Of a stretch of 64,000 nt of DNA, positions 52,750 through 64,000 are shown piece after piece. A program made the position numbers and the translations under genes. The notes under the pieces were generated by a model. The model saw only the letters and a program-made list of their open reading frames with translations. It was not told where the DNA came from and searched no databases. The first letter of the stretch is position 1, and each line of letters opens with the position of its first letter. Source of the DNA: an uncultured Chthonomonadaceae bacterium. Its GTDB lineage: Bacteria; Armatimonadota; Chthonomonadetes; Chthonomonadales; Chthonomonadaceae. The stretch is taken from NCBI GenBank assembly GCA_963817895.1, contig CAWFQB010000001.1, positions 1,344,001 through 1,408,000 of the forward strand. Direction: 5' to 3'.

Positions 52750-53541
52750 TTGAATCTGACGGAATTTATAAGCAGTTTATCCCCGGCTGACAGTCAGGCG
52801 CTTCAAGAGCGTCTTGATGTTTTGTCGCGTCACAATTTAGGCCGTCAGTTTGTCATTAACCTGAAAGCGGAGGCGCGGTTTACCATTGCTATTTGGCAGA
52901 CACTCCATCAAACTTTCCTTAACGCCTCACCCGACCCTGACAGTCTGCGAACAGCATTTATAGACGCCTTTCGTCCGTACATATTAAATGGCGGTTCAAT
53001 TCCCACACCTTGGCCCACTCACTATGGACGCGCCACGCCGGAGAACATTTTTGCTGACCTACTCGTAAAACAGGGCAAGGCGACTTCACGCACAGCGGCA
53101 AAACGCTTCCTCAGGAATCTAATGTCAAAGTCCCTACCAATAGTCCAGCAAAGATTAGCGCACAAAGAAATCGGCCAGTATATGATATGGGCGACGTTCA
53201 ACGAAGACAACCCAAATGGCGACCCTTTTGAAAAATTGCCGGATGATGCGGAAGGCATCCGGGCCGGCCTCGGCTTGGACCCCAATTACACCGGCGACAT
53301 GATTTTACTGACCTACTACTTGCCTGTTGGAGTGGAACCTTTGTATCCAACCGTTGCCGATGGTTACTCTAGTGGCTGGAACTACTATTATCGTCCTTCC
53401 TATACGGATGAGCGGTATGGCAGAACTTTATGCTGGCTTGGACGCGCCGATGTGTCCCCTTGCCCGGAAGTGGTTCATAAGCCTGTGACCGGCGATTGTT
53501 TGCTCGCTCCCATAGCAAAGGCGAAAGAGAAACGAATATGA
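52750..53541 (+). CDS. Hypothetical protein, possible ART/NADase-like fold
   Basis: GAGGAG RBS, TTG start; WATF, LGL, PTVAD, YRP..YGRT, PEVVH. Confidence 0.6.
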   Translation: MNLTEFISSLSPADSQALQERLDVLSRHNLGRQFVINLKAEARFTIAIWQTLHQTFLNASPDPDSLRTAFIDAFRPYILNGGSIPTPWPTHYGRATPENIFADLLVKQGKATSRTAAKRFLRNLMSKSLPIVQQRLAHKEIGQYMIWATFNEDNPNGDPFEKLPDDAEGIRAGLGLDPNYTGDMILLTYYLPVGVEPLYPTVADGYSSGWNYYYRPSYTDERYGRTLCWLGRADVSPCPEVVHKPVTGDCLLAPIAKAKEKRI

Positions 53542-54371
53542 GTCCACTTACAGATGAAAACGGCAAACTGGATTTGGCAGCCGTTGAAAATTTAAGTGAA
53601 TCTGAACTACGCGATTGGATATTTGCGCGTCTGCATAGTCAGGATATGCTTGTTCCCGGCGGTTTTGGTCGAGCCGAACTGCCACATTTTTTGCTGACGC
53701 AAATCTATCCACAACTCAGCCGTCCTGCGCGTCAGGATATGGAAAATATCGTTGAGGACTTTGTACGTAAAATGGCGCGTCACAATGAAAGCGAATGGCA
53801 GGGTGACGCAGCGGATGAATTGCTGTTACTGGCGCAGACGGTTTGCGGCGGCACAACCATCAATCAAGCCGTAATTGGCTACATTGAGGAAATGGCGCAA
53901 TCGTTAAACTTCTTCAATGCCGATAATGACGGGCAGATAGACTTGCATTACCGTCTGCTGCAAAGTCTGGTTGCGCTCGGTTGGCGTGGAAGGCCGGAGT
54001 TTTGGCGTGAACAGGTACGCCGTGCCTCGAAACGATATACAGGTGTTGCTTTTAGTGGCCTTGCGCTGATAAGCCCTAAAGAAGCGGTCGCGCTGCTAAC
54101 GGAGATCGAATGGTCGGACGCGGTTGAGGATCAGATTTTCACCAATCTGCCGGACTTTTTAGAGGAGTACCAGATTTCCTGCGTCCTGCCCCTGTTTCAG
54201 CGTTATCTTCCCGCCATGCGAGAACGGACACGAGCCGCTATTTGCGGCTACATGGCTGAAGAGGGAATTCCGCTGGCATTGACAACTGTGACAAGTACAA
54301 AGTATGAACCACATAGAGACTTTTTTCGCAAGCGTGATTTGCCAATCACGCTAGAGCATGCGGCTACCTGA
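53538..54371 (+). CDS. Hypothetical all-helical protein
   Basis: 277 aa; ATGA and TGATG overlaps with its neighbours. Confidence 0.7.
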   Translation: MSPLTDENGKLDLAAVENLSESELRDWIFARLHSQDMLVPGGFGRAELPHFLLTQIYPQLSRPARQDMENIVEDFVRKMARHNESEWQGDAADELLLLAQTVCGGTTINQAVIGYIEEMAQSLNFFNADNDGQIDLHYRLLQSLVALGWRGRPEFWREQVRRASKRYTGVAFSGLALISPKEAVALLTEIEWSDAVEDQIFTNLPDFLEEYQISCVLPLFQRYLPAMRERTRAAICGYMAEEGIPLALTTVTSTKYEPHRDFFRKRDLPITLEHAAT

Positions 54372-56521
54372 TGCTAACCACGAACTTCCGTCCCAAACGC
54401 AAAACCGTATTTTACACCTTTTACTCGTTCAAGGGAGGCGTGGGCCGTACCATGTCTCTGATTAACGTGGCCTGCATCCTCGCGGCGCGTGGGCGGCGCG
54501 TCCTGATGATTGACTTCGATCTGGAAGCGCCCGGTTTGACGAATCTTGCCCTCCGAGATATTGCCGTCGAAGCCGACAAACAGCGCGACGGCCTTGTAGA
54601 ACTGATTCAAGATTTTGTAGATGCTCCTGAAAATTCTCCCTTAGCCGATGAAACCAATCGCGCACCCTTCTTCGACAAGTATGTTCGCCAACTTCAAATA
54701 CCCGACACGCTCGAACCCTTGGAGGGCGGCAGCCTGCACCTATTGCCCTGTGGACGCATAGACGCCACGTATACGGAACGCCTGTACGCCATTGACTTCA
54801 AGCAACTTTATGCGGAGGGAGTTGGGCAGCCGCTGTTCAAGTATCTGAAAACCTATATTCGTGACGCGGAACGCTATGATTACGTCCTCATAGACTCCCG
54901 CACGGGCTTTTCGGACGAGGGCGGCATTTGCACCCGCGACCTTGCCGACCACATTTTCATTATTACCGGCCTGAACCGCCAGAACATTGACGGCACGGTT
55001 CAGTTCCTGCGCCAACTGGAAGCAAGCGGCTGGCAGGAGGGTCAACTCGTCTTCGTCGCCTCCCCCGTTCCCACCGGCCTTGAAGAACTGCGCGATCAGC
55101 GCATCAAAGCAGCAAAAGCAGCGATTGAACAAACCCGCTTCAAAGCCGATTTCAAACTGCGTATTCCCTACCATCCCCGTCTTGCCCTTGACGAAGAGCC
55201 ATTCGTTTATCGCTGGTCGGATACTGACTTATTCCCCTCATACCAGAGCATCGCGCGTGTTCTAAGAGAAATAGTTGATGACACGCCTTTAGTATTGAGT
55301 CAGGAAATCACTGAGGCAATGAATCAGCAAAAGTATGATGAAGCACTATCCATACTTCATCAGTTAATTGCAGAGGAACATGAGGTCGGATTAAGTGTAC
55401 TAACCTCCGTAACTGCTGCAATGGCAGATTCCCCTCACATTCTGCTGGATAAAGCCATACCTTTCTTTGAGATGTTAATTCAGCAACGCAATGTGGCAGA
55501 GCCACACAGACTTTATGCAAACTATCTTAGAAATATTAACAAGTTGCCGGAAGCGCTTGAACAGCTAAATGTCGCGCGAGAAATGTTCGTCAATCGAAAA
55601 GAGGTATCTCAAACCGCTTATGTTTTAATGGATGTTGGGATTATCAATAGCAGACTCGGCGAACCTAATGTAGCGTTAGAGAACTACAGGAGTGCTGACG
55701 AACTATTTACGAGAACCAATAATGATTTAGGATCAGCAACGGTTCGCCTACTTCAAGGTATAAACTATGCCGAAGGCGGGAATTTACAACAAGGATTGTC
55801 ATTAGCTGCAACTGCCGTGGAAATGCTGCGAGGTGTCGGTAATAAATTGGCGTTATCTAATGGTTTAGTACATTACGGTTTCATACTGTTATTAAAAGGT
55901 GAATATTCTTCTGCGTTCGCAGTGTCTAATGAGGCATTGCTTATCAGCCGCGAAATTAGATTGCCCCCGCATACTGCACAGACTTGTGAGTTGAAAGCTA
56001 AAATTCTTCTTGAACAAAAAGAGTATGATGCGGCTATACCTTTATATGATGAAGCCCTACAAGGATATACTGCTATAAACAATTCCATAGGATTAGCTTC
56101 TATCCGTACTGATAGGGGCTATATTGATGTTCAACAAGGAGACGAAAGAGGGCTGGAACAGATAGAAGACTCGGTTCAGTTTTACCATAATACAGGCGAA
56201 TACGGTAGAAGTTCAGGGGCGCGTACTACGTTTGCCGAGGCTTTATTCAGTATCAGCGTACACAGGTGTAATGAGTACATAACTAATCAATGGGAGTACA
56301 TACAACATCATGCAGTCTGTTACACGCGTTATAGACTATACGTTCTTCGCGCCAAAGTAAAGGCCGTGCTTGGCGATAGGCAAGGCGCAGCCGAAGATGC
56401 TCAGATTGCGGTTGACTTTTACCGTGAGCAGGGCGTTCATACACTTTTGGCGCAGGAAGCGGAAAAACTGGCAAAGTTAAACGTTGCGCAAGATGCTGAC
56501 GTAAAAATAAACGCCTCGTGA
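54371..56521 (+). CDS. ParA/MinD-like KGGVGR-motif ATPase fused to TPRs
   Basis: FYSFKGGVGRT, IDFDLEAPGL, YDYVLIDSRTG; TPR-like helices in the C-terminal half. Confidence 0.88.
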   Translation: MLTTNFRPKRKTVFYTFYSFKGGVGRTMSLINVACILAARGRRVLMIDFDLEAPGLTNLALRDIAVEADKQRDGLVELIQDFVDAPENSPLADETNRAPFFDKYVRQLQIPDTLEPLEGGSLHLLPCGRIDATYTERLYAIDFKQLYAEGVGQPLFKYLKTYIRDAERYDYVLIDSRTGFSDEGGICTRDLADHIFIITGLNRQNIDGTVQFLRQLEASGWQEGQLVFVASPVPTGLEELRDQRIKAAKAAIEQTRFKADFKLRIPYHPRLALDEEPFVYRWSDTDLFPSYQSIARVLREIVDDTPLVLSQEITEAMNQQKYDEALSILHQLIAEEHEVGLSVLTSVTAAMADSPHILLDKAIPFFEMLIQQRNVAEPHRLYANYLRNINKLPEALEQLNVAREMFVNRKEVSQTAYVLMDVGIINSRLGEPNVALENYRSADELFTRTNNDLGSATVRLLQGINYAEGGNLQQGLSLAATAVEMLRGVGNKLALSNGLVHYGFILLLKGEYSSAFAVSNEALLISREIRLPPHTAQTCELKAKILLEQKEYDAAIPLYDEALQGYTAINNSIGLASIRTDRGYIDVQQGDERGLEQIEDSVQFYHNTGEYGRSSGARTTFAEALFSISVHRCNEYITNQWEYIQHHAVCYTRYRLYVLRAKVKAVLGDRQGAAEDAQIAVDFYREQGVHTLLAQEAEKLAKLNVAQDADVKINAS

Positions 56522-56557
56522 AATGTGGTGACGAGCGAAGATTGACGGGAATAGCCA

Positions 56558-57340
56558 ATGCGTTTTGTGAGACAAAATTTGTTAGCGTGTATTCTGCTCT
56601 GCGTTTGCTGTGACGCGGCCCTTGCCGCGCCGCCGAACCTGAAGCCTGCGCGTTCTGCGCCCATCGCGCCTTCCGCTTCCGCCAACATCAGCCTTGCCGC
56701 CCTGTTGCCGCCGGGACGGTTTCGCGCCGATGTGATGCAGCCGGAACCCTCGCCGCGTCTCGCCCAACTGAGCCGCAAGATGCAGGAGGGCATCCGCAAA
56801 AATCCCCAGTGGTTTATGGCGGAAATCCAGAAAGTGAAACCGGGCGAGAATATTCCCTACGATGCGCGATTGAACCTGACGCGGGAAGAGTACAATCTGT
56901 TGAACCATCCGGCTCCGCAGATGCAATTGCGCAGGGTGGGTGGTGGTCTGATTACGATTTGGAGTGTGGGAACCCGGCGCGTGTTGACCGGCGTGGGAAC
57001 GCTGTTCGGATTGAACGGCATTGAGATTGATCTACAGCGGCAAAGCGTGAAAACCCTGCTTGGCGTTTTGAACGCCCCAACGCCAGTGAAAGCCAATACC
57101 AGCCAGTCCGCAGACGCCACATGGAACGGTTTCGCGTGGAAACTGGATACGATGGCGCATAAAGAGACGCCCTCGCAGATGACAGGCACAATCGCTGAAT
57201 TCACGTTGGGCAAACTGGTAAAATCCGGGCGTATCCAACTCACCTACAAAGCGCAACAGATGAACGGCGGTAAGCCTCAAAGCAATTTCGCCTACCTGCT
57301 GCACTACACTGCGCCTCCGCAATTCCCACGCAGACATTAA
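56558..57340 (+). CDS. Hypothetical exported protein
   Basis: 260 aa with signal peptide. Confidence 0.7.
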   Translation: MRFVRQNLLACILLCVCCDAALAAPPNLKPARSAPIAPSASANISLAALLPPGRFRADVMQPEPSPRLAQLSRKMQEGIRKNPQWFMAEIQKVKPGENIPYDARLNLTREEYNLLNHPAPQMQLRRVGGGLITIWSVGTRRVLTGVGTLFGLNGIEIDLQRQSVKTLLGVLNAPTPVKANTSQSADATWNGFAWKLDTMAHKETPSQMTGTIAEFTLGKLVKSGRIQLTYKAQQMNGGKPQSNFAYLLHYTAPPQFPRRH

Positions 57341-57413
57341 CCCATTTTCATTGCGCATCCGGTTGTTCGCGGCATGGAACTTTGCCCGCTTCTGCCGCAT
57401 ACAAATATTGTAG

Positions 57414-57438
57414 GTAGGGCGGGGGCTTGTCCCCCGCC
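57414..57438 (+). repeat. GTAG-type REP palindrome
   Basis: GTAG-GGCGGGGG-cttgt-CCCCCGCC. Confidence 0.55.
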
Positions 57439-57476
57439 GATAATGTGATGGCGCACAGAAGCGGGAGTAAAAAAGG

Positions 57477-58433
57477 ATGAAGGTTTTTGTGGCGGGGGCG
57501 ACGGGCGTGTTGGGGCGGGCGCTGCTGCCGTCTCTTGTGGCGTTGGGGCATGAGGTGTATGGCATGGGGCGGACGCCCGAAAAAGTTCTGGCCGTCGCGC
57601 AAATGGGCGCAACGCCCGTTCGCGCCGATGTTCTGGATGCCGCCCGCATTGCCCGCGCGGTTGGCGACGTTCAGCCCGATGCCATTGTCAATCTTGCCAC
57701 GTCCATACCGCTGAAACTGCGCGTCAATCTCGACCACTGGAAAGAGAATGACCGGGTGCGTCTGGAGGGTTCGCGCAATCTGCTTGCGGCTGCCAGAAAC
57801 GCCAACCTGCGCCTGTTCGCGCAGGCAAGCGCGGATCAGGTGTGCGAAACGCAGGGCGACGGCTGGATAACCGAAACTTCGCCGCGCAGTTCCCACGCTT
57901 TTCTCCACGCCACGCAGGAGATGGAAGACCGGGTACGCGCGTCCGGCCTGCCCGCCACCCTGCTGCGCTTTTCCGTCCTGATGGCCGCTGATTCATGGCA
58001 CACGCAGCAAAGCGTCACGGCCCTGAAACGCGGCTTATTGCCTGTCATTGGCGACGGCAGCGCGTTTGTCAGCATGGTTCATGTCGCGGACGCGGTTCAG
58101 GCCATTCTCCTCGCCCTGCAACAGCCGGAACTCGCAGCCGGACAAACCTTCAACGTCGCGGACAACGAACCCGCCCGGATGCGCGACATTCTCCCCTACG
58201 CCGCCCAACTCCTCCACGCGCAGCCGCCCCGAACCGTGCCGCCCCTGATGGCGAAAATGGTAGTCGGCGCGCTGACTATTGACGTGCTGACCCAATCCCA
58301 CCGCATGAGCAATGAGAAAATCCGCCAGACCCTCGGCTTCGCCCCGCAATACCCCACCTACCGCGAATCATGGTCACAAATCGTCCGCGAAATCGGCGCA
58401 AGCGACTTTGCCGCCTCCGATGATTTGAAATAA
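57477..58433 (+). CDS. NAD-dependent epimerase/dehydratase family protein
   Basis: VFVAGATGVLG, HVADA, FNVAD. Confidence 0.9.
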   Translation: MKVFVAGATGVLGRALLPSLVALGHEVYGMGRTPEKVLAVAQMGATPVRADVLDAARIARAVGDVQPDAIVNLATSIPLKLRVNLDHWKENDRVRLEGSRNLLAAARNANLRLFAQASADQVCETQGDGWITETSPRSSHAFLHATQEMEDRVRASGLPATLLRFSVLMAADSWHTQQSVTALKRGLLPVIGDGSAFVSMVHVADAVQAILLALQQPELAAGQTFNVADNEPARMRDILPYAAQLLHAQPPRTVPPLMAKMVVGALTIDVLTQSHRMSNEKIRQTLGFAPQYPTYRESWSQIVREIGASDFAASDDLK

Positions 58434-58565
58434 TAGCGAAGCGCGCTTCCTGTTCTGCGCGCGGCGCGAAAAAATGAAAACCTTTCCATTTAGAAGTGTT
58501 GGTCCTGTATAGCGAAGGTTTTGGAGGCATAAAGGAGAACGCTGTGTTGACGGCGTACTATGCCT

Positions 58566-58656
58566 TGTCGTGTGAGGATGGAAACACCTCTTTGCAGAAG
58601 AAATACACACCTGCGGAAAGTTGCACCCGGCAGAAATGTCGGGTGAGGATGGAAAC
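58566..58656 (+). CRISPR. Degenerate CRISPR-like mini-array, left part (half repeat, 34-nt spacer, full repeat)
   Basis: Full repeat 58620-58656 GTTGCACCCGGCAGAAATGTCGGGTGAGGATGGAAAC; 58566-58585 matches its last 20 nt at 19/20. Confidence 0.65.
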
Positions 58657-58876
58657 CTGTGCGGCGCGGTCGTATCTGTCCGATGGGCGGCGCAAACCTT
58701 ATCCGGTCTGGCGATGCAGGGCTGATCAGCAGCAGCACGACAAAGACGGGCTTTTGCCATACTGTCAAATTGGTGCAGTCGCCTGGCAGCGGTGTCTGGA
58801 AGTGCGCGGCAGGCAACGAGCGTGATGCCGGCGCGACTTCGGATCGAGACCTCTCTTCAATGGTCGTCATTCGACC

Positions 58877-60009
58877 TTACAAAGATTGAACACCTGAACA
58901 GCTGAACCAAGCCCCTCCTTGCAGAGTTTCGCAGGAAGGGGCTTTTTGTTGTTTGCGATAAGTTGGGTGGCACTTGAGTAAATGACAATTATAACATTGT
59001 ATCAGTAAGTGCTGTTCTACAGTCATACCAAGATGGCGGCAAATAGGGCTCAGCTCCTTATCGGTCAAAGGCCATCTGGCTTTGGCCTCAACCCTATTCG
59101 AGGAGACATAAAAGTATACATACAGTACCGCAGCCAGGCGCATAACATAATTTTCGTCGTAGTCTTTACAAATATCATTGTAAAGAGCTGGGCGCCTAAC
59201 GAAAAACTGCTTTACTTGCTCCACATCCAAATGTTCAGGATCAGCGCCCAACTCCTTTAACAACCACACGCTAGTCTTCGTATCCTGAATGGGTTCTTTA
59301 TGAACTCCCTCAGAATATAGGATATTAAGCTGTTCAATTGTGTGGCTTACGTTTCTGTGCATTCGATTTACAATGTCTGCTGACCTCTGAAACACATCTT
59401 CAGTAGCTTCAAGCAGTGCCATACTTCTTGCCAACGCTCGCCGAATAGGGGATCTCCTACGGCGGATGGTTTATAAACCGTATCGTGTGACATCTCACTG
59501 TACGCATGCTGCATTAAGGTTCGAACTTGGATTTCGCATGGGGTACCGGCTGGAATTGATACTTCCTCATACACATGAGGGGCCTGCAGCCTCACAATGT
59601 AATGATCTGATTGATAATCAAAGACTGTGGGATAACGTTCCCTGTCCTCAGCGAATTCTCGTGATTGTTCCCACGACCAAATCGAGGAATTTTTTATGGC
59701 GTTACCTACTATCTTTGTATCTTCGAGCAGTAAAACAACAAAGCGAACACCCACTTTGTCAAGAACGTCCTTGTACGGATCGGCAAAGTTCATGCCTCGA
59801 AAAAAGGCCTTCGCAACAAAGGAATTTGGATCCTTGACGCGGGGCGATGGAGGTATCCGCAAGAAAGCATTGATAGGTTGAAGTGAAGGTAGTTCACCAC
59901 GGAGTTGATCGGATACCTCTTTGACAACCAAGTGGCCCAGGGCATTAAAGATACCCCATTCTGCTGCAAAACGTTCCTTAGCTTCTTCCGGCGTCATGAC
60001 TTGATCCAT
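58877..60009 (-). CDS. RelA/SpoT-type small alarmone synthetase-like protein; frameshift near 59450
   Basis: RVKDPNS, DKVGVR, YQSDH, EIQVRT..QHAYSEMSHD..YK; continues as RRALARSMALLE in the 58877-59434 frame; no hydrolase domain. Confidence 0.85.
58909..58947. terminator. Hairpin at the 3' end of the island operon
   Basis: AAGCCCCTCCTTGC...GCAGGAAGGGGCTTTTT. Confidence 0.55.
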
Positions 60010-61108
60010 TCACGGGCCTAGTGGTATCGCCCTTCTCAGTCAGGAAACCCCGGATTTTGATGAGTGTGTAGCCCTCATCGTTGGAGATGACTTCTAATAG
60101 GTCCTCAAAGCCTGTTGACGGGGCTGTAATTACTACCTTTGAATTGAAGTTAAGGAAGCGTTTGCTCAGTTTCCCAGCCACGACGTTTCTATCAATTACT
60201 ATGTCGATGTCTGGGAATTCCTTCTCCCCCATTTCATTGACGTATTGGCCCCGAAAGTTTTCGGGAAGATAGGCAGCAAAATCTGCCACATTGATTCTAC
60301 TACGAACAGGGTCCTGTAAATAGGAATACAAGAGTGTACTAATTTCTACTTTTTCTCTGTCCGAGATGGACAAGTTGAGTATGTGAGATTGGGTAAGATT
60401 ATAAAAATCTCCTGTCAATTTTCTCGAAATTTTTGCTACCGTGCATCCCATAAAGGATTTATAGAAATATTGGGCCATCCCATCTGTGGAAGTACGGGTT
60501 ATATGATGGTCATATATAATCGCTCTGAAATCGTCGGTGAAACGAAGCTCGCCCTCTGGCCCATCAGGTCTTGTTTCTTCTACAAATATTCCTATTTTGT
60601 AGAGCTTTTGAGTCGGTGTGAGAAACATTTGCTTTATATGCTGCATTTGCTCTACCAGAGCTGAACCATCACTTAGTTGCGCAGATGTCGAAAAGCCTTC
60701 ATGCAGCTCGCTCTTCATCACACAAATAAAACGCTTGTCTTCATCACCAGTTGTACCGGATAGTACCAGAACATATCCATCAGGAATTTTGCCTGATGTT
60801 TGCACACTCTCCAATCTTTGGACAAGTTCACGATTGAGCCTGATAAACTCGATGTCATTACAGGCAATCATCTTTGCGCACATCTGGAAAGTAGATCCTT
60901 CGCCATCATTCTCGATATCCATTTCAACGCAATGGGAATTTGATCGAAGGTATTCCGTAAGCCGCTGTGTGACGGTTCGCAGCAGCTCTCTATTTAGCAT
61001 AGAGGGTGCATCTGCGCATAGTCTATAGTATCCCTGACCACCATCTTGACGTTTTGCTAAGAGACTTTCTGTGATGCGGTGGATTTGTAGATTGCTGAAA
61101 AGACTCAT
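59978..61108 (-). CDS. NA37/NdpA(YejK)-like nucleoid-associated protein
   Basis: 376 aa; FICVMKSELHEG, FLTPTQKLYKIG, YD, AQYFYKSFMGC, KLTGDFY pattern. Confidence 0.65.
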   Translation of the reverse strand: MSLFSNLQIHRITESLLAKRQDGGQGYYRLCADAPSMLNRELLRTVTQRLTEYLRSNSHCVEMDIENDGEGSTFQMCAKMIACNDIEFIRLNRELVQRLESVQTSGKIPDGYVLVLSGTTGDEDKRFICVMKSELHEGFSTSAQLSDGSALVEQMQHIKQMFLTPTQKLYKIGIFVEETRPDGPEGELRFTDDFRAIIYDHHITRTSTDGMAQYFYKSFMGCTVAKISRKLTGDFYNLTQSHILNLSISDREKVEISTLLYSYLQDPVRSRINVADFAAYLPENFRGQYVNEMGEKEFPDIDIVIDRNVVAGKLSKRFLNFNSKVVITAPSTGFEDLLEVISNDEGYTLIKIRGFLTEKGDTTRPVNGSSHDAGRS

Positions 61109-61135
61109 GGTGTCATCCTATTGGCAGCTTGATTG

Positions 61136-61726
61136 CTAGTTGTTGTCCGTAGCTTCTATTGCGTTTTGATCAGTTTTGTCCGGCTTCAAAGGTGAGTAGC
61201 CAGAAGCTTTAGCAATAGTGCTTGAAAATAAACGATTAGATACTACTGGTGATTCTTTGGCTAAGGCGTCCATTTGCTTTTGAATGCCGTCAAGGTAAGC
61301 TTTAGGTTTGCCGCGACTGACAGGAAGCAAAGCCGCTGTTTTTTCCAAATCCCTTCGTATCGCTGCGTAATGCGCTGCAGACGCTCGATGCTTTTCGGCG
61401 CGTTCTGATAGCTTAAGAAAAGTTTGGAGACTTGAGAGAAAGGCTGAGGTAAGAGTGAGAAAGGCCATAACATAAATTCCTCTATCACCCCAACTTTTAA
61501 TGATATTAGTCACAGCGCCAACGCCGGCGAAACTAGAAAAGATAATTGCGATTATTCCTAGCCCCTTGTGCCATTTGTCATTTGATTCGGCAGCAGCATA
61601 GTGTGTAAGTTGTTGATCCCGTACGCGCCTGTGCCAATTTGTTATTACATGATCAACTGCTGCCCATTCACTCTCAAGGGAAGTATCTGAAGGTTTCGCT
61701 AAATCTTCGGACAACGTTTTACTCAT
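61136..61726 (-). CDS. SLATT-family 2TM effector
   Basis: HYAAA...LGI, two TM helices, LQTFL..SERAEKH..SA..Y..IRRDLE; GAGGT RBS. Confidence 0.8.
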   Translation of the reverse strand: MSKTLSEDLAKPSDTSLESEWAAVDHVITNWHRRVRDQQLTHYAAAESNDKWHKGLGIIAIIFSSFAGVGAVTNIIKSWGDRGIYVMAFLTLTSAFLSSLQTFLKLSERAEKHRASAAHYAAIRRDLEKTAALLPVSRGKPKAYLDGIQKQMDALAKESPVVSNRLFSSTIAKASGYSPLKPDKTDQNAIEATDNN

Positions 61727-61794
61727 CTTGCTTTTACCTCATCAACCTATTCCAAGTCGTTTCCACATTCGCCAACACAGCAGCCAAGACTTTC

Positions 61795-61998
61795 CTACCC
61801 GCTGGAAGCAATCGCTGCTTTCTTGCCTCTCCCGCCCTTCAGCTTATCGCGCTTACGGAACTTTTCGATATCCTCACTGTTCAGGCACACGTAAGGAACG
61901 CCCTCGACCGGCTTCAGTCAGCCCTGGCGAATGGCCGCGTAGATGCGTTCACGCGACACGCCCACTTCTTCTGCCGCTTGTGAAACTCTCAATAACAT
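61795..61998 (-). pseudogene. Excisionase-like HTH protein with in-frame TGA
   Basis: GAGGTG RBS; MLLRVSQAAEEVGVSRERIYAAIRQG*LKP (TGA at 61918-61920). Confidence 0.7.
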
Positions 61999-62036
61999 TG
62001 TCTTCACCTCGTTTGAATAATGTACCCTAAACCTGT

Positions 62037-62535
62037 TCACAATCGCAAACAATTTGTTGCAGTGTGTCTGATTACAAGCCGCATAGTCGCTCCTGCCCCT
62101 CCCTCAAACAAGCCGTGTGAACCCCTGTGTAAGACTTCTCTACTGTAACTACATCCAGAGACATCATTCAGATGATTTTCTTTTCGGCTTTGCGTTGGAA
62201 GCAGGTGACTGCTACAGCACCTTGCGAGCGGATTGGCGGCAGTATGATCGGCGCGCACTTGGTCGGGGGCGGCGTGAAGATAGCCCATTGTGGTTTCGAG
62301 CCGGCTGTGTCCTAAAATACGGGCGGCGCTAACGACGTTGGTTTTGGCGATCTCCGTTGCCGTGAAATGGCGCAGGGAGTGGCGGGTGTAGTAAGGCAGG
62401 CCGGCAAACTCCAGGTAGAGATTCATGCGCTTCTTGGCGCTGTCTTTGTCTAAGGGCAGGCCGCCTTCGGACAGCAAGAGGGGGGCGTTTTTGAGTTGCG
62501 GACGGATTTTCAGTCATTTCTTGACGGCGAGTACC
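62037..62535 (-). pseudogene. Tyrosine integrase C-terminal remnant
   Basis: HSLRH..AT, ILGHS.LETT..Y; N-terminal part missing. Confidence 0.85.
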
Positions 62536-62576
62536 CACATTTGTGGCTGGTGTTGGATGCTAACGAGGTTATGAAA

Positions 62577-62635
62577 TACGCCTGGTTGGATTCGAGCCAA
62601 CGGCCTCTTGCTCCGGAGGCAAGCACTCTATCCAC
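62577..62635 (-). other. 5'-truncated tRNA-Arg(CCG) fragment, probable att site
   Basis: GTGGATAGAGTG-CTTGC-CTCCGGA-GCAAG-AGGCC-GTTGG-CTCGAAT-CCAAC-CAGGCGTA; 5' acceptor strand absent, T-loop TTC changed to CTC. Confidence 0.75.
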
Positions 62636-62751
62636 ATTGCACCCGACAGAAATGTCGGGTGAGGGTAGAAACATAAAGGGCGTCAGGCTGTCCACAAACT
62701 TATTAACGCTTATTGTGAAATAAGCGTAGCATGGTCGCCAGGGATTGAAAC
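62636..62751 (+). CRISPR. Degenerate CRISPR-like mini-array, right part
   Basis: 62636-62672 ATTGCACCCGACAGAAATGTCGGGTGAGGGTAGAAAC (33/37 to the left repeat), then a remnant ending GGATTGAAAC at 62751. Confidence 0.6.
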
Positions 62752-62801
62752 TCCCTGCCTGCACAAAGCAAGCGTCCCTCAAACGCGGGAATCTTGATTG
62801 A

Positions 62802-62881
62802 GAATTGCGTCTGAAAGACGCTTGTACTTTCCTGCCGGGGAAAGAGATTTAATCTGAAATCCCCGGCCCTTTAGGATAGGC
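62802..62881. repeat. Partial copy of the MITE-like element at 44474-44567
   Basis: GCGTCTGAAAGACGCTTG.ACTTTCCTGCCGGG...CCGGCC...GGATAGGC shared. Confidence 0.7.
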
Positions 62882-62893
62882 GCACAACCTGCA

Positions 62894-63310
62894 CTACGGA
62901 GCCGCCAGCGGACAGCCGATCTCCCACAGATGACCGAACGGATCCACCACACGCCCCATGCGCCACCCATGCGCTTCCGCCACTGCGAAAGACTCCCGCG
63001 CCCCTGCCCCAAGCGCCCTCGCAAACATCGCATCCGGGTCCGGCACCGTTAAAAGCATCCGAACGGAACTGCTCCCCAGCGTTTCCGGGCTGGAGTGACC
63101 ATATTTCGGAGATTCATCGCTCAGCCAGAATTCCCCGCCCTCCACCGTCAGGCGAGCCACAATTGCGCCGTCAGGAGCCTCGACACGGTAGACCTCAACC
63201 GCGCCAAAGGCCGCTTTGTAGAACTCCACCGCTCGCGCCCCGTTACGAACCGACAGTATCGCCGATACCGAACAGGCAACGCCCCGCTCTGTCTCAATGT
63301 CATCACGCAT
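62894..63310 (-). CDS. VOC/glyoxalase family protein (PhnB-like)
   Basis: AVEFYKAAFGA, GWRMGRVVDPFGHLWEI. Confidence 0.9.
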   Translation of the reverse strand: MRDDIETERGVACSVSAILSVRNGARAVEFYKAAFGAVEVYRVEAPDGAIVARLTVEGGEFWLSDESPKYGHSSPETLGSSSVRMLLTVPDPDAMFARALGAGARESFAVAEAHGWRMGRVVDPFGHLWEIGCPLAAP

Positions 63311-63452
63311 CCCAATGCCCTCCCGCTTCTATGGATGAAAAGCGCAGTGTTCGCCTTTCGCTTCTATACTGTAAGACAGGGGAAGCAGGCGGAAAGCGAT
63401 GCAGAGGCTAATCCTGTTCCCACTCCGGTCGCCTGGGTGCTTTGTTGCGCGT

Positions 63453-63812
63453 TCAGCGGTCATCCGACTTCTGAACCACACAAAAGAGATTATCATCGGG
63501 GTCCCGCAGCACGACAAAATCATCCCCCGGCTTATACCGCCACGGGTATCGCGTCGCCCCGAGCCTCACCAGTCTCTCGACTTCGGCCTCCTGATCATCC
63601 GTATAAAGGTCCAGATGCAGCCGGCTTCTCCTGCCTGTGCGTCTCTCAGGAACCTTATCCAGCGACACATTCGGGCCGCTTCCCTGCGGATCACGCAATA
63701 CCACCCAGCCATCCCGCGCAGGCTCTCTGGGGACATAACCGAGCGCCTCCTGCCAGAAGGCGAACATGCGGTCGAATTCGTAGCATCGGATAACGACCGA
63801 ACCGATTTTCAT
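63453..63812 (-). CDS. VOC/glyoxalase family protein
   Basis: FWQEALGY, RLHLDL, VLRDPDDNLFCVV. Confidence 0.9.
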   Translation of the reverse strand: MKIGSVVIRCYEFDRMFAFWQEALGYVPREPARDGWVVLRDPQGSGPNVSLDKVPERRTGRRSRLHLDLYTDDQEAEVERLVRLGATRYPWRYKPGDDFVVLRDPDDNLFCVVQKSDDR

Positions 63813-64000
63813 TCTTTCGCTCCAATGAGGAACAAAACTTCCCCGGTCTCACCAGGACAAACCCCCCGGTAAAAAATTTAGAAAAAAGTGACAAACAGCG
63901 CAAAAAACCGAAACCTGCGCCAGAAACATCTGTCTACATAAAAAGAACGTCTATTAAACAGCCAGGTGGCGGGACGCGGAGAGTTTAAAATTCCTCTCCA

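Follow-up and report, generated by a model that had tools for sequence, protein, structure and literature searches.

Two type I-C CRISPR repeats bracket a probable prophage fragment with a predicted PANGU-like defence operon in a Chthonomonadaceae genome

A stretch of 64,000 nucleotides from the genome of an uncultured Chthonomonadaceae bacterium (hereafter the window) raises the question of how nearly four kilobases of phage-like DNA came to lie between two CRISPR repeats, termed R1 and R2, in a genome in which we found no type I-C cas gene. The window corresponds to positions 1344001-1408000 of contig C1 of the genome G000 (7.5 Mb, 14 contigs, 81% complete); coordinates given below without a contig are window positions, and the same-genus genomes used for comparison are G001 (97% complete) and G002. 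The bracket formed by R1 and R2 is real and its cargo is of a known defence type. The best reading of the locus, to which we give about an even chance of being right, is that a Cas1-type capture placed a kilobase-sized prophage fragment between the repeats in the manner of a spacer.

R1 and R2, first noticed in a sequence-only reading of this DNA, are indeed identical at 33 of 37 positions, whereas after shuffling the bases of 55001-64000 100 times no two 37-mers agreed at more than 25/37, and both fold into the 9-bp stem with a GAAA loop described there. The degenerate copy that the same reading placed to the left is a true 3' half repeat (R0), separated from R1 by a spacer-sized unit (S0); the 17 bases preceding it match the canonical repeat at only 3/17 positions. 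The degenerate copy said to end at 62751 on the right belongs instead to a repetitive extragenic palindromic (REP)-like element: the GGGATTGAAA motif is present in 4/4 other REP-like copies inspected, and the 25 bases ahead of it match the I-C repeat at only 7/25. As an observation in its own right, a family of REP elements or miniature inverted-repeat transposable elements (REP/MITE), found at 26 places in G000, has outer ends resembling the I-C repeat at its 3' end, and the two changes in the tail of R2 agree with the outer end of this family, which might reflect a common descent or conversion. The locus is not an array of at least three regularly spaced repeats, as a single 34-nt unit is followed by 3,979 bp. 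The flanking units, which had been put forward as spacers, led to no target: S0 and the sequence after R2 gave chance matches only against phages (E 3-8), as did S0 against plasmids, a 23-nt piece of S0 had no exact match in viral contigs, and no self-match with fewer than 10 mismatches was found in G000. The left junction (R0-S0-R1) is not an assembly artefact, because contigs of two public sequencing runs carry it. Run X1 may represent the source sample, and a short-read contig from it shows no differences over 58496-58727; one from run X2 shows 20 differences and 8 gaps against 58278-58955. Past 58955 the X2 contig departs from the window, with 59204-61606 uncovered, and the insert beyond this point was not used as evidence from that run. 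The orthologues of the host epimerase gene on the left flank have no repeat behind them in G001 and G002.

By sequence comparison R1 and R2 can be assigned to type I-C, because near-identical 37-mers form arrays beside complete I-C cas operons elsewhere. Search patterns built from the repeat copies retrieved no loci and then two from genome contigs, two loci of one viral contig and seven metagenome loci. Several of these are regular arrays with spacers of 32-39 nt which adjoin Cas3, Cas5c, Cas8c, Cas7c, Cas4, Cas1c and Cas2, each locus showing part or all of this set (in the order cas3-5c-8c-7c-4-1-2), and one cas-adjoining array of a near-identical repeat lies in an Armatimonadetes metagenome-assembled genome. 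This supports the I-C-like identity suggested earlier and half answers the reservation attached to it, that the 37-mer might be a dispersed element never seen in arrays or near cas genes: it is dispersed in G000 and in the family, but elsewhere it forms regular arrays beside cas genes. The stem variant of R1 and R2 was found in no array: no viral contig matched, and a scan of 401 genomes of the phylum picked up, besides G000 itself, just an array in G063 whose repeat is another variant. Separately, the 55-kb viral contig IMGVR_UViG_3300022554_000219 (loci L091/L092) carries a full type I-C operon together with an array of a near-identical repeat.

No type I-C cas gene was found in G000, within its 81% completeness, on searching for Cas1, DevR-type Cas7, RAMPs, Cas7c and Cas5, and tblastn with 13 proteins (12 Cas and one reverse transcriptase) returned no Cas and a weak match for the reverse transcriptase only. 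Cas5 (PF09704, which is not I-C specific) occurs in 21 of 42 Chthonomonadaceae genomes, but not in G000, G001 or G002, and G001 gave no match to Cas1, Cas5 or Cas6. The earlier remark that cas genes are lacking thus holds for the window and, to the stated completeness, for type I-C in G000, but not for all types, as 0.8 Mb away there is a broken cas6 accompanied by a different type of repeat. This lone cas6 (locus L040, C1:585295-588564) is accompanied by a two-unit remnant of that other repeat, and G002 has an intact cas6 and a short array at a DNA stretch similar to it. G002 also encodes a reverse transcriptase, Cas1, Cas2 and Cas6 with a long array adjoining a ribosomal-protein operon (L062), and G000 has an orphan array of about nine repeats of another type at C2:324350-324950, with no cas gene in the 24 surrounding open reading frames scanned.

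The interval between R1 and R2 measures 3,979 bp. At its left end the base directly following R1 already lies within an amidase gene, which is truncated there: the remaining piece aligns to amidases of 172/173 residues (45% identity, E 3e-11) from its residue 1 on, and the proline codon spanning the R1/insert junction also matches these relatives, so that no spacer is left between R1 and the cut gene. The piece gave nothing in a word-index search, Pfam or PHROGs, and a CHAP scan of four amidase relatives yielded one weak match, below the cut-off; we call it CHAP-like, provisionally, on a language-model match and the alignment. On the right a partial copy of tRNA-Arg(CCG), which matches the host gene at C1:365754 at 57/59 positions and the G002 gene plus flank at 61/62, retains its identity up to the last base before R2. 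This copy was missed by ARAGORN, and Rfam reported three tRNAs in the whole window, none of them within the bracketed region. The adjacent integrase stub matches residues ~263-369 of a 386-aa relative which itself follows tRNA-Arg(TCG). The ends of the insert share no terminal duplication longer than 5-mers. Compared with phages the whole insert gave one weak match, in the tRNA region, and no donor element was found. Because both ends are cut inside a feature, exactly at the repeat edge, the insert is not an intact island, and its gene content identifies it as a probable cut-out of a tRNA-integrating prophage. In what the sequence-only reading proposed as an integrase island of ~4 kb there is a single truncated tRNA copy, the integrase is reduced to a C-terminal stub and the element is cut at both ends.

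Between these ends lie genes for SLATT, NA37/YejK-like and RelA/SpoT-like proteins with a GC content of 44%, which we predict to form a PANGU-like defence operon. According to the accessible part of its description, type I PANGU consists of a YejK-like nucleoid-associated protein and a RelA/SpoT-type toxin encoded as an overlapping pair, with an optional SLATT gene (bioRxiv 10.64898/2026.04.06.716658). As far as that part goes, the insert has the same layout, an overlapping pair of nucleoid-associated protein and toxic small alarmone synthetase (toxSAS) genes with SLATT; the likeness is one of layout, and a difference is that the toxin frame is split in the assembly. The alignment of an X1 contig ends at a G4 run where this frame splits, a weak hint that the split may be an assembly error. 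The NA37 protein has two relatives in the protein collection, at 32%, and none of 14 candidates from viral contigs was confirmed.

Based on these observations we propose that R0-S0-R1...R2 is what remains of a mini-array of type I-C that has lost its cas genes. While its Cas1-Cas2 was active, both ends of a multi-kilobase prophage piece would have been joined into one repeat, duplicating it, as happens with a 35-bp prespacer. The captured piece would have run from within the tRNA at the integrase end of a tRNA-Arg(CCG) prophage, via a defence cargo slot, into a lysin-like gene; it would have decayed afterwards, and the PANGU-like operon may be the reason for its retention. It could not excise, because the integrase is deleted and only one attachment (att) end is present. 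Integration by Cas1-Cas2 yields ends flush with both repeats, and the insert is flush with R1 and R2 without target duplication; on this account Cas1-Cas2 would have made both junctions in one event. The insert resembles canonical acquisition by I-C Cas1-Cas2-Cas4 in repeat family, flush ends, a repeat on each side and a phage-like foreign source, but differs in its length of 3,979 bp instead of 32-39 nt, in the lack of an adjoining leader or cas gene, and in repeats that differ from each other at four bases. The earlier idea of an orphan array interrupted by an element is borne out in part, but not as a clean integration, as the insert stops short in mid-feature at each repeat and no spacer remains between it and R1. 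Among relatives a single att scar of tRNA-Arg(CCG) was found, in G054; it begins at nt 39 of the tRNA, not at nt 15 as here.

Long DNA between such repeats is also seen elsewhere. In G001 two repeats enclose 770 bp, which start in mid-gene and whose last frame stops within the repeat, the nearest named cluster being a phage minor-capsid family (0.90); in G014 ~1.7 kb contain a topoisomerase IB frame that likewise stops within the repeat; and the last spacer of an intact I-C array (L099) is 309 bp long. At a second site in G000 (L001:6370-9370; C1:1484373-1487368) a ~100-nt leader-like stretch, 86% identical to C5:13232-13124, precedes a repeat, 36 nt and another repeat, and repeats bracket an insert of 2,738 bp. 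A gene for a helix-turn-helix (HTH) antitoxin begins 4 nt past the repeat and is followed by a broken, presumably PIN-like gene (a toxin-antitoxin remnant) and a methylase gene, and a third repeat touches the stop codon of a C5 methylase gene. Several points count against the capture. Cas1 was found in neither G000 nor G001, so that the enzyme is absent today, and R1 and R2 differ at 4/37 bases. G000 has four further att scars of tRNAs whose starting point, nt 12-13, is a mere 2-3 nt away from the R2 junction, and an integrase crossover would explain that joint. Lone repeats at tuf and rpmJ also meet host DNA exactly at their 3' end, so that a flush 3' junction needs no two-ended capture. In G001 phage-like genes run on past the second repeat. 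Finally, a literature search turned up no publication on kilobase spacer capture.

Apart from these brackets, this lineage scatters single repeats throughout the genome, in leaders that are transcribed. A covariance model matched 26 of 42 family genomes, many of the matches being arrays (150 candidates were scored per genome, and G000 and G001 match partly by construction), and gave 11 matches in G000 at E<=0.01; a profile from 13 repeats of other genomes' loci gave 8 matches in G000 at E<=1 versus none in the reversed genome. Lone I-C repeats were located in G000 and nine relatives, the latter chosen because they showed lone matches, in leaders of tuf, infC, ribosomal-protein and rRNA genes. 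Orientation was classified with a simple purpose-made gene caller for 49 of 52 rows; the rows dropped were a G045 pair with the spacing of an array and a palindrome of G000 that belongs to a REP. With the repeat taken as plus, the upstream and downstream genes are ++ in 30 cases, -+ in 9, +- in 4 and -- in none; the rest are + and uncalled (3), uncalled and + (2), and uncalled and - (1). The last of these is R2, the only copy antisense to both neighbours, its uncalled upstream genes being the minus-strand genes of the insert; under the capture this exception is expected, because R2 would be a duplicate of R1 and not a separate insertion. Same-direction gaps in G000 overall number 243 ++ and 181 --, and the sense bias has a P of ~1e-8 over ~27 independent sites after allowing for shared ones, a figure subject to kinship among the genomes and to errors of the gene caller.

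The lone copies in G000 include one between infA and the rpmJ promoter, one 17 nt ahead of tuf and one in an rRNA leader. The first two are absent from G001 and G002, and the third is common to G000 and an operon of G002, with a compensatory change in the stem. A copy in the infC leader occurs in three genomes of one genus with a covarying stem, and further sites are at nusG, ahcY and fabF, at tuf of a second genus, and in gaps among ribosomal-protein genes, these gaps varying from genome to genome; at one G002 copy the length differs from that of the G000 site by about one repeat. G001 has six lone matches and gave no Cas1, Cas5 or Cas6 match. Leader repeats are often followed by A-rich bases, a Shine-Dalgarno sequence and ATG, and in G002 one directly precedes the fabF start. 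No target duplications were seen by eye, except a possible 7-mer at the second G001 repeat. A separate feature of G000 is a hairpin of short tandem repeats apparently inserted in the 16S rRNA gene on C4 (L006), ~200 nt from its start. We found no report in the literature of lone I-C repeats being scattered, with a strand bias, among core leaders, though supplementary tables of surveys of solitary repeat units may list them.

What competes most closely with capture is a two-step history, in which the prophage's own integrase used the boundary between spacer and R2 in an orphan mini-array as a secondary att site, and a later deletion ending at R1 removed most of the prophage. In this clade att sites are laid out as a tRNA fragment with an integrase of the same direction behind it (the tRNA lies by the integrase in 9/9 loci checked), nt 12-13 is where four att scars of G000 start, and G10-C11 of the tRNA D-stem are common to the R2 side. 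These four scars, however, all keep TCAG, which the tRNA junction of the insert lacks; the two with an integrase beside them belong to another clade (Phe-type, 27% to the Arg-type that the stub resembles); the tRNA-Arg(CCG) scar of G054 starts at nt 39; and two coincidences are needed, in that the insertion has to fall on the base with which R2 begins and the deletion has to stop at the final base of R1. We consider this history possible but rather unlikely. A related suggestion, that the repeats themselves served as recombination sites, finds no support, as neither repeat is broken and it is the tRNA copy that the integrase adjoins. The prophage phiAP1.1 is similar in interrupting an array; by the part of its description at hand its attP has 8 bp in common with the repeat, which is split into attL and attR (bioRxiv 2020.10.09.333658), while here the two repeats are whole and the att-like sequence is the tRNA. 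The scars in G000 (C1:1543342, C4:223455, C6:346900 and C6:350101) start in the D-arm, with tandem islands at tRNA-Lys; G000 also has an array of 16 tRNA genes at C4:227906-230044, at the end of which lie an integrase and an att scar, and ARAGORN reports a tRNA-Pyl-like gene on C11 and a tRNA-Sec gene on C1.

R1 and R2 might otherwise be two independent dispersed repeats between which rearrangements at their ends brought the prophage remnant. The 11 covariance-model matches in G000 are mostly lone, G002 and G000 show a clean single-repeat difference in a ribosomal-protein operon, and the lone repeats at tuf and rpmJ have flush 3' junctions; yet R2 breaks the sense rule of lone repeats, the nearest neighbour of R1 is R2 (33/37, the next 32) and R0-S0-R1 has the spacing of an array, so that we judge this improbable. 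More doubtful still is that the repeats function, for the element or for the host, as small-RNA genes, which would give an RNA anti-CRISPR (Racr) or a crRNA-like guide repressing the defence operon. R0-S0-R1 does have the half-repeat/spacer/repeat form of I-C CRISPR RNA-like RNAs (crlRNAs, CRISIS), adjoining defence genes (bioRxiv 2023.03.03.530964, 2024.12.27.630466, as far as the available text shows), and the stem covaries at 5/9 pairs over 12 distinct repeats. Against it, no I-C Cascade genes were found in G000, G001 or G002, seed matches of the sequences following R0, R1 and R2 within 12 kb reach at best 9-10 nt without a TTC/TTA protospacer-adjacent motif (PAM) or are lacking, 58300-59100 holds no promoter-like site, and R1 destroys an amidase gene of the element. 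In the portions of those accounts available, crlRNAs lie inside cas loci, with a seed and TTC/TTA PAM at a nearby promoter as target (as for CreR and CRISIS), neither of which is true here. Racrs are likewise lone repeats without cas genes, with the type I-C example RacrIC1 (PMC10651486); in what could be consulted they lie inside mobile elements, with a promoter, in hosts mostly with matching Cas, whereas the Chthonomonadaceae repeats stand in core chromosomal leaders, also where no cas gene was found, and R1 and R2 mark the edges of the element with no promoter called before R0 or R1. The element-borne mini-arrays or Racrs envisaged in the sequence-only reading are disfavoured on the same grounds.

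Table 1. Positions of the repeats, of the features of the insert and its surroundings, and of lone repeats elsewhere (G, C and L: genomes, contigs and loci)
Feature	Position	Strand	Match or remark
NAD-dependent epimerase gene of the host, left flank	57477..58433	+	Pfam PF01370
R0, 3' half of type I-C repeat	58566..58585	+	16/20 vs canonical repeat
S0, spacer-sized unit of 34 nt between R0 and R1	58586..58619	+	no target found
R1, full type I-C repeat	58620..58656	+	32/37 vs array repeat of complete I-C systems (L092, L098, L099)
CHAP-like amidase gene, putative, 3' part (~77 of 172 codons)	58657..58889	+	cut at R1 edge; catalytic-Cys half missing
Hairpin and T-run after amidase stop	58909..58950	+	terminator-like by folding; not called by consensus scan
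RelA/SpoT-like gene (Pag1B-like), two frames split near 59430-59450	58877..60009	-	PF04607; phrog_32462 positions 1-177 of 330
NA37/YejK-like nucleoid-associated protein (Pag1A-like), overlaps RelA/SpoT start	59978..61108	-	PF04245; phrog_1974
SLATT_4 protein, two membrane helices	61136..61726	-	
Excisionase-like HTH frame, internal TGA	61790..61998	-	weak phrog_66 match, E 0.02
Tyrosine integrase C-terminal stub, first ~260 codons missing	62223..62537	-	PF00589; 37% to tRNA-Arg(TCG) integrase on C4
tRNA-Arg(CCG) copy, nt 15-73	62577..62635	-	abuts R2
R2, full type I-C repeat	62636..62672	+	29/37 vs array repeat of L092, L098, L099
REP-like dispersed element	62705..62869		dozens of BLAST matches in G000
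Lone repeats of G000 in core-operon leaders and gaps	C3:187668, C10:83572-83608, C4:153128, C1:19508, C5:13093-13121, C3:327239-327267		facing with transcription
Lone repeats of relatives in core-operon leaders and gaps, facing with transcription	L139, L140, L149, L152, L159, L161, L193		

Just left of the repeats, a low-GC block of three genes at 52750-56521, the last of which is a ParA-TPR gene (PADLOC PDC-M28B match), constitutes a second candidate defence locus.

If capture by Cas1-Cas2 is the right reading, and this enzyme integrates kilobase DNA in cells, CRISPR loci would also serve to capture genes, in this case an entire anti-phage operon, and a recording enzyme in wide use would have a softer size limit than assumed. 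The lone repeats raise a wider question. A survey of crlRNAs reports, in its available part, that repeat-like matches are depleted outside cas loci and at background level in CRISPR-negative genomes (bioRxiv 2023.03.03.530964), with which, as far as that part goes, strand-biased lone repeats in housekeeping leaders conflict. How the single repeats spread, and whether they are processed, we can only infer. As a tentative proposal, the I-C repeat may lead a life outside CRISPR loci, in which the integrase would join long DNA to repeats, storing kilobase phage pieces and defence operons, and repeat-by-repeat recombination would seed single copies; those lying sense in the leaders of tuf, infC, ribosomal-protein and rRNA genes might be kept as RNA hairpins, cut sites or ribosome-binding modules, even after loss of the cas genes. 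In the Chthonomonadaceae the scatter of lone repeats points either to Cas5c sites on host mRNAs or to the recruitment of a repeat as an RNA element acting in cis.

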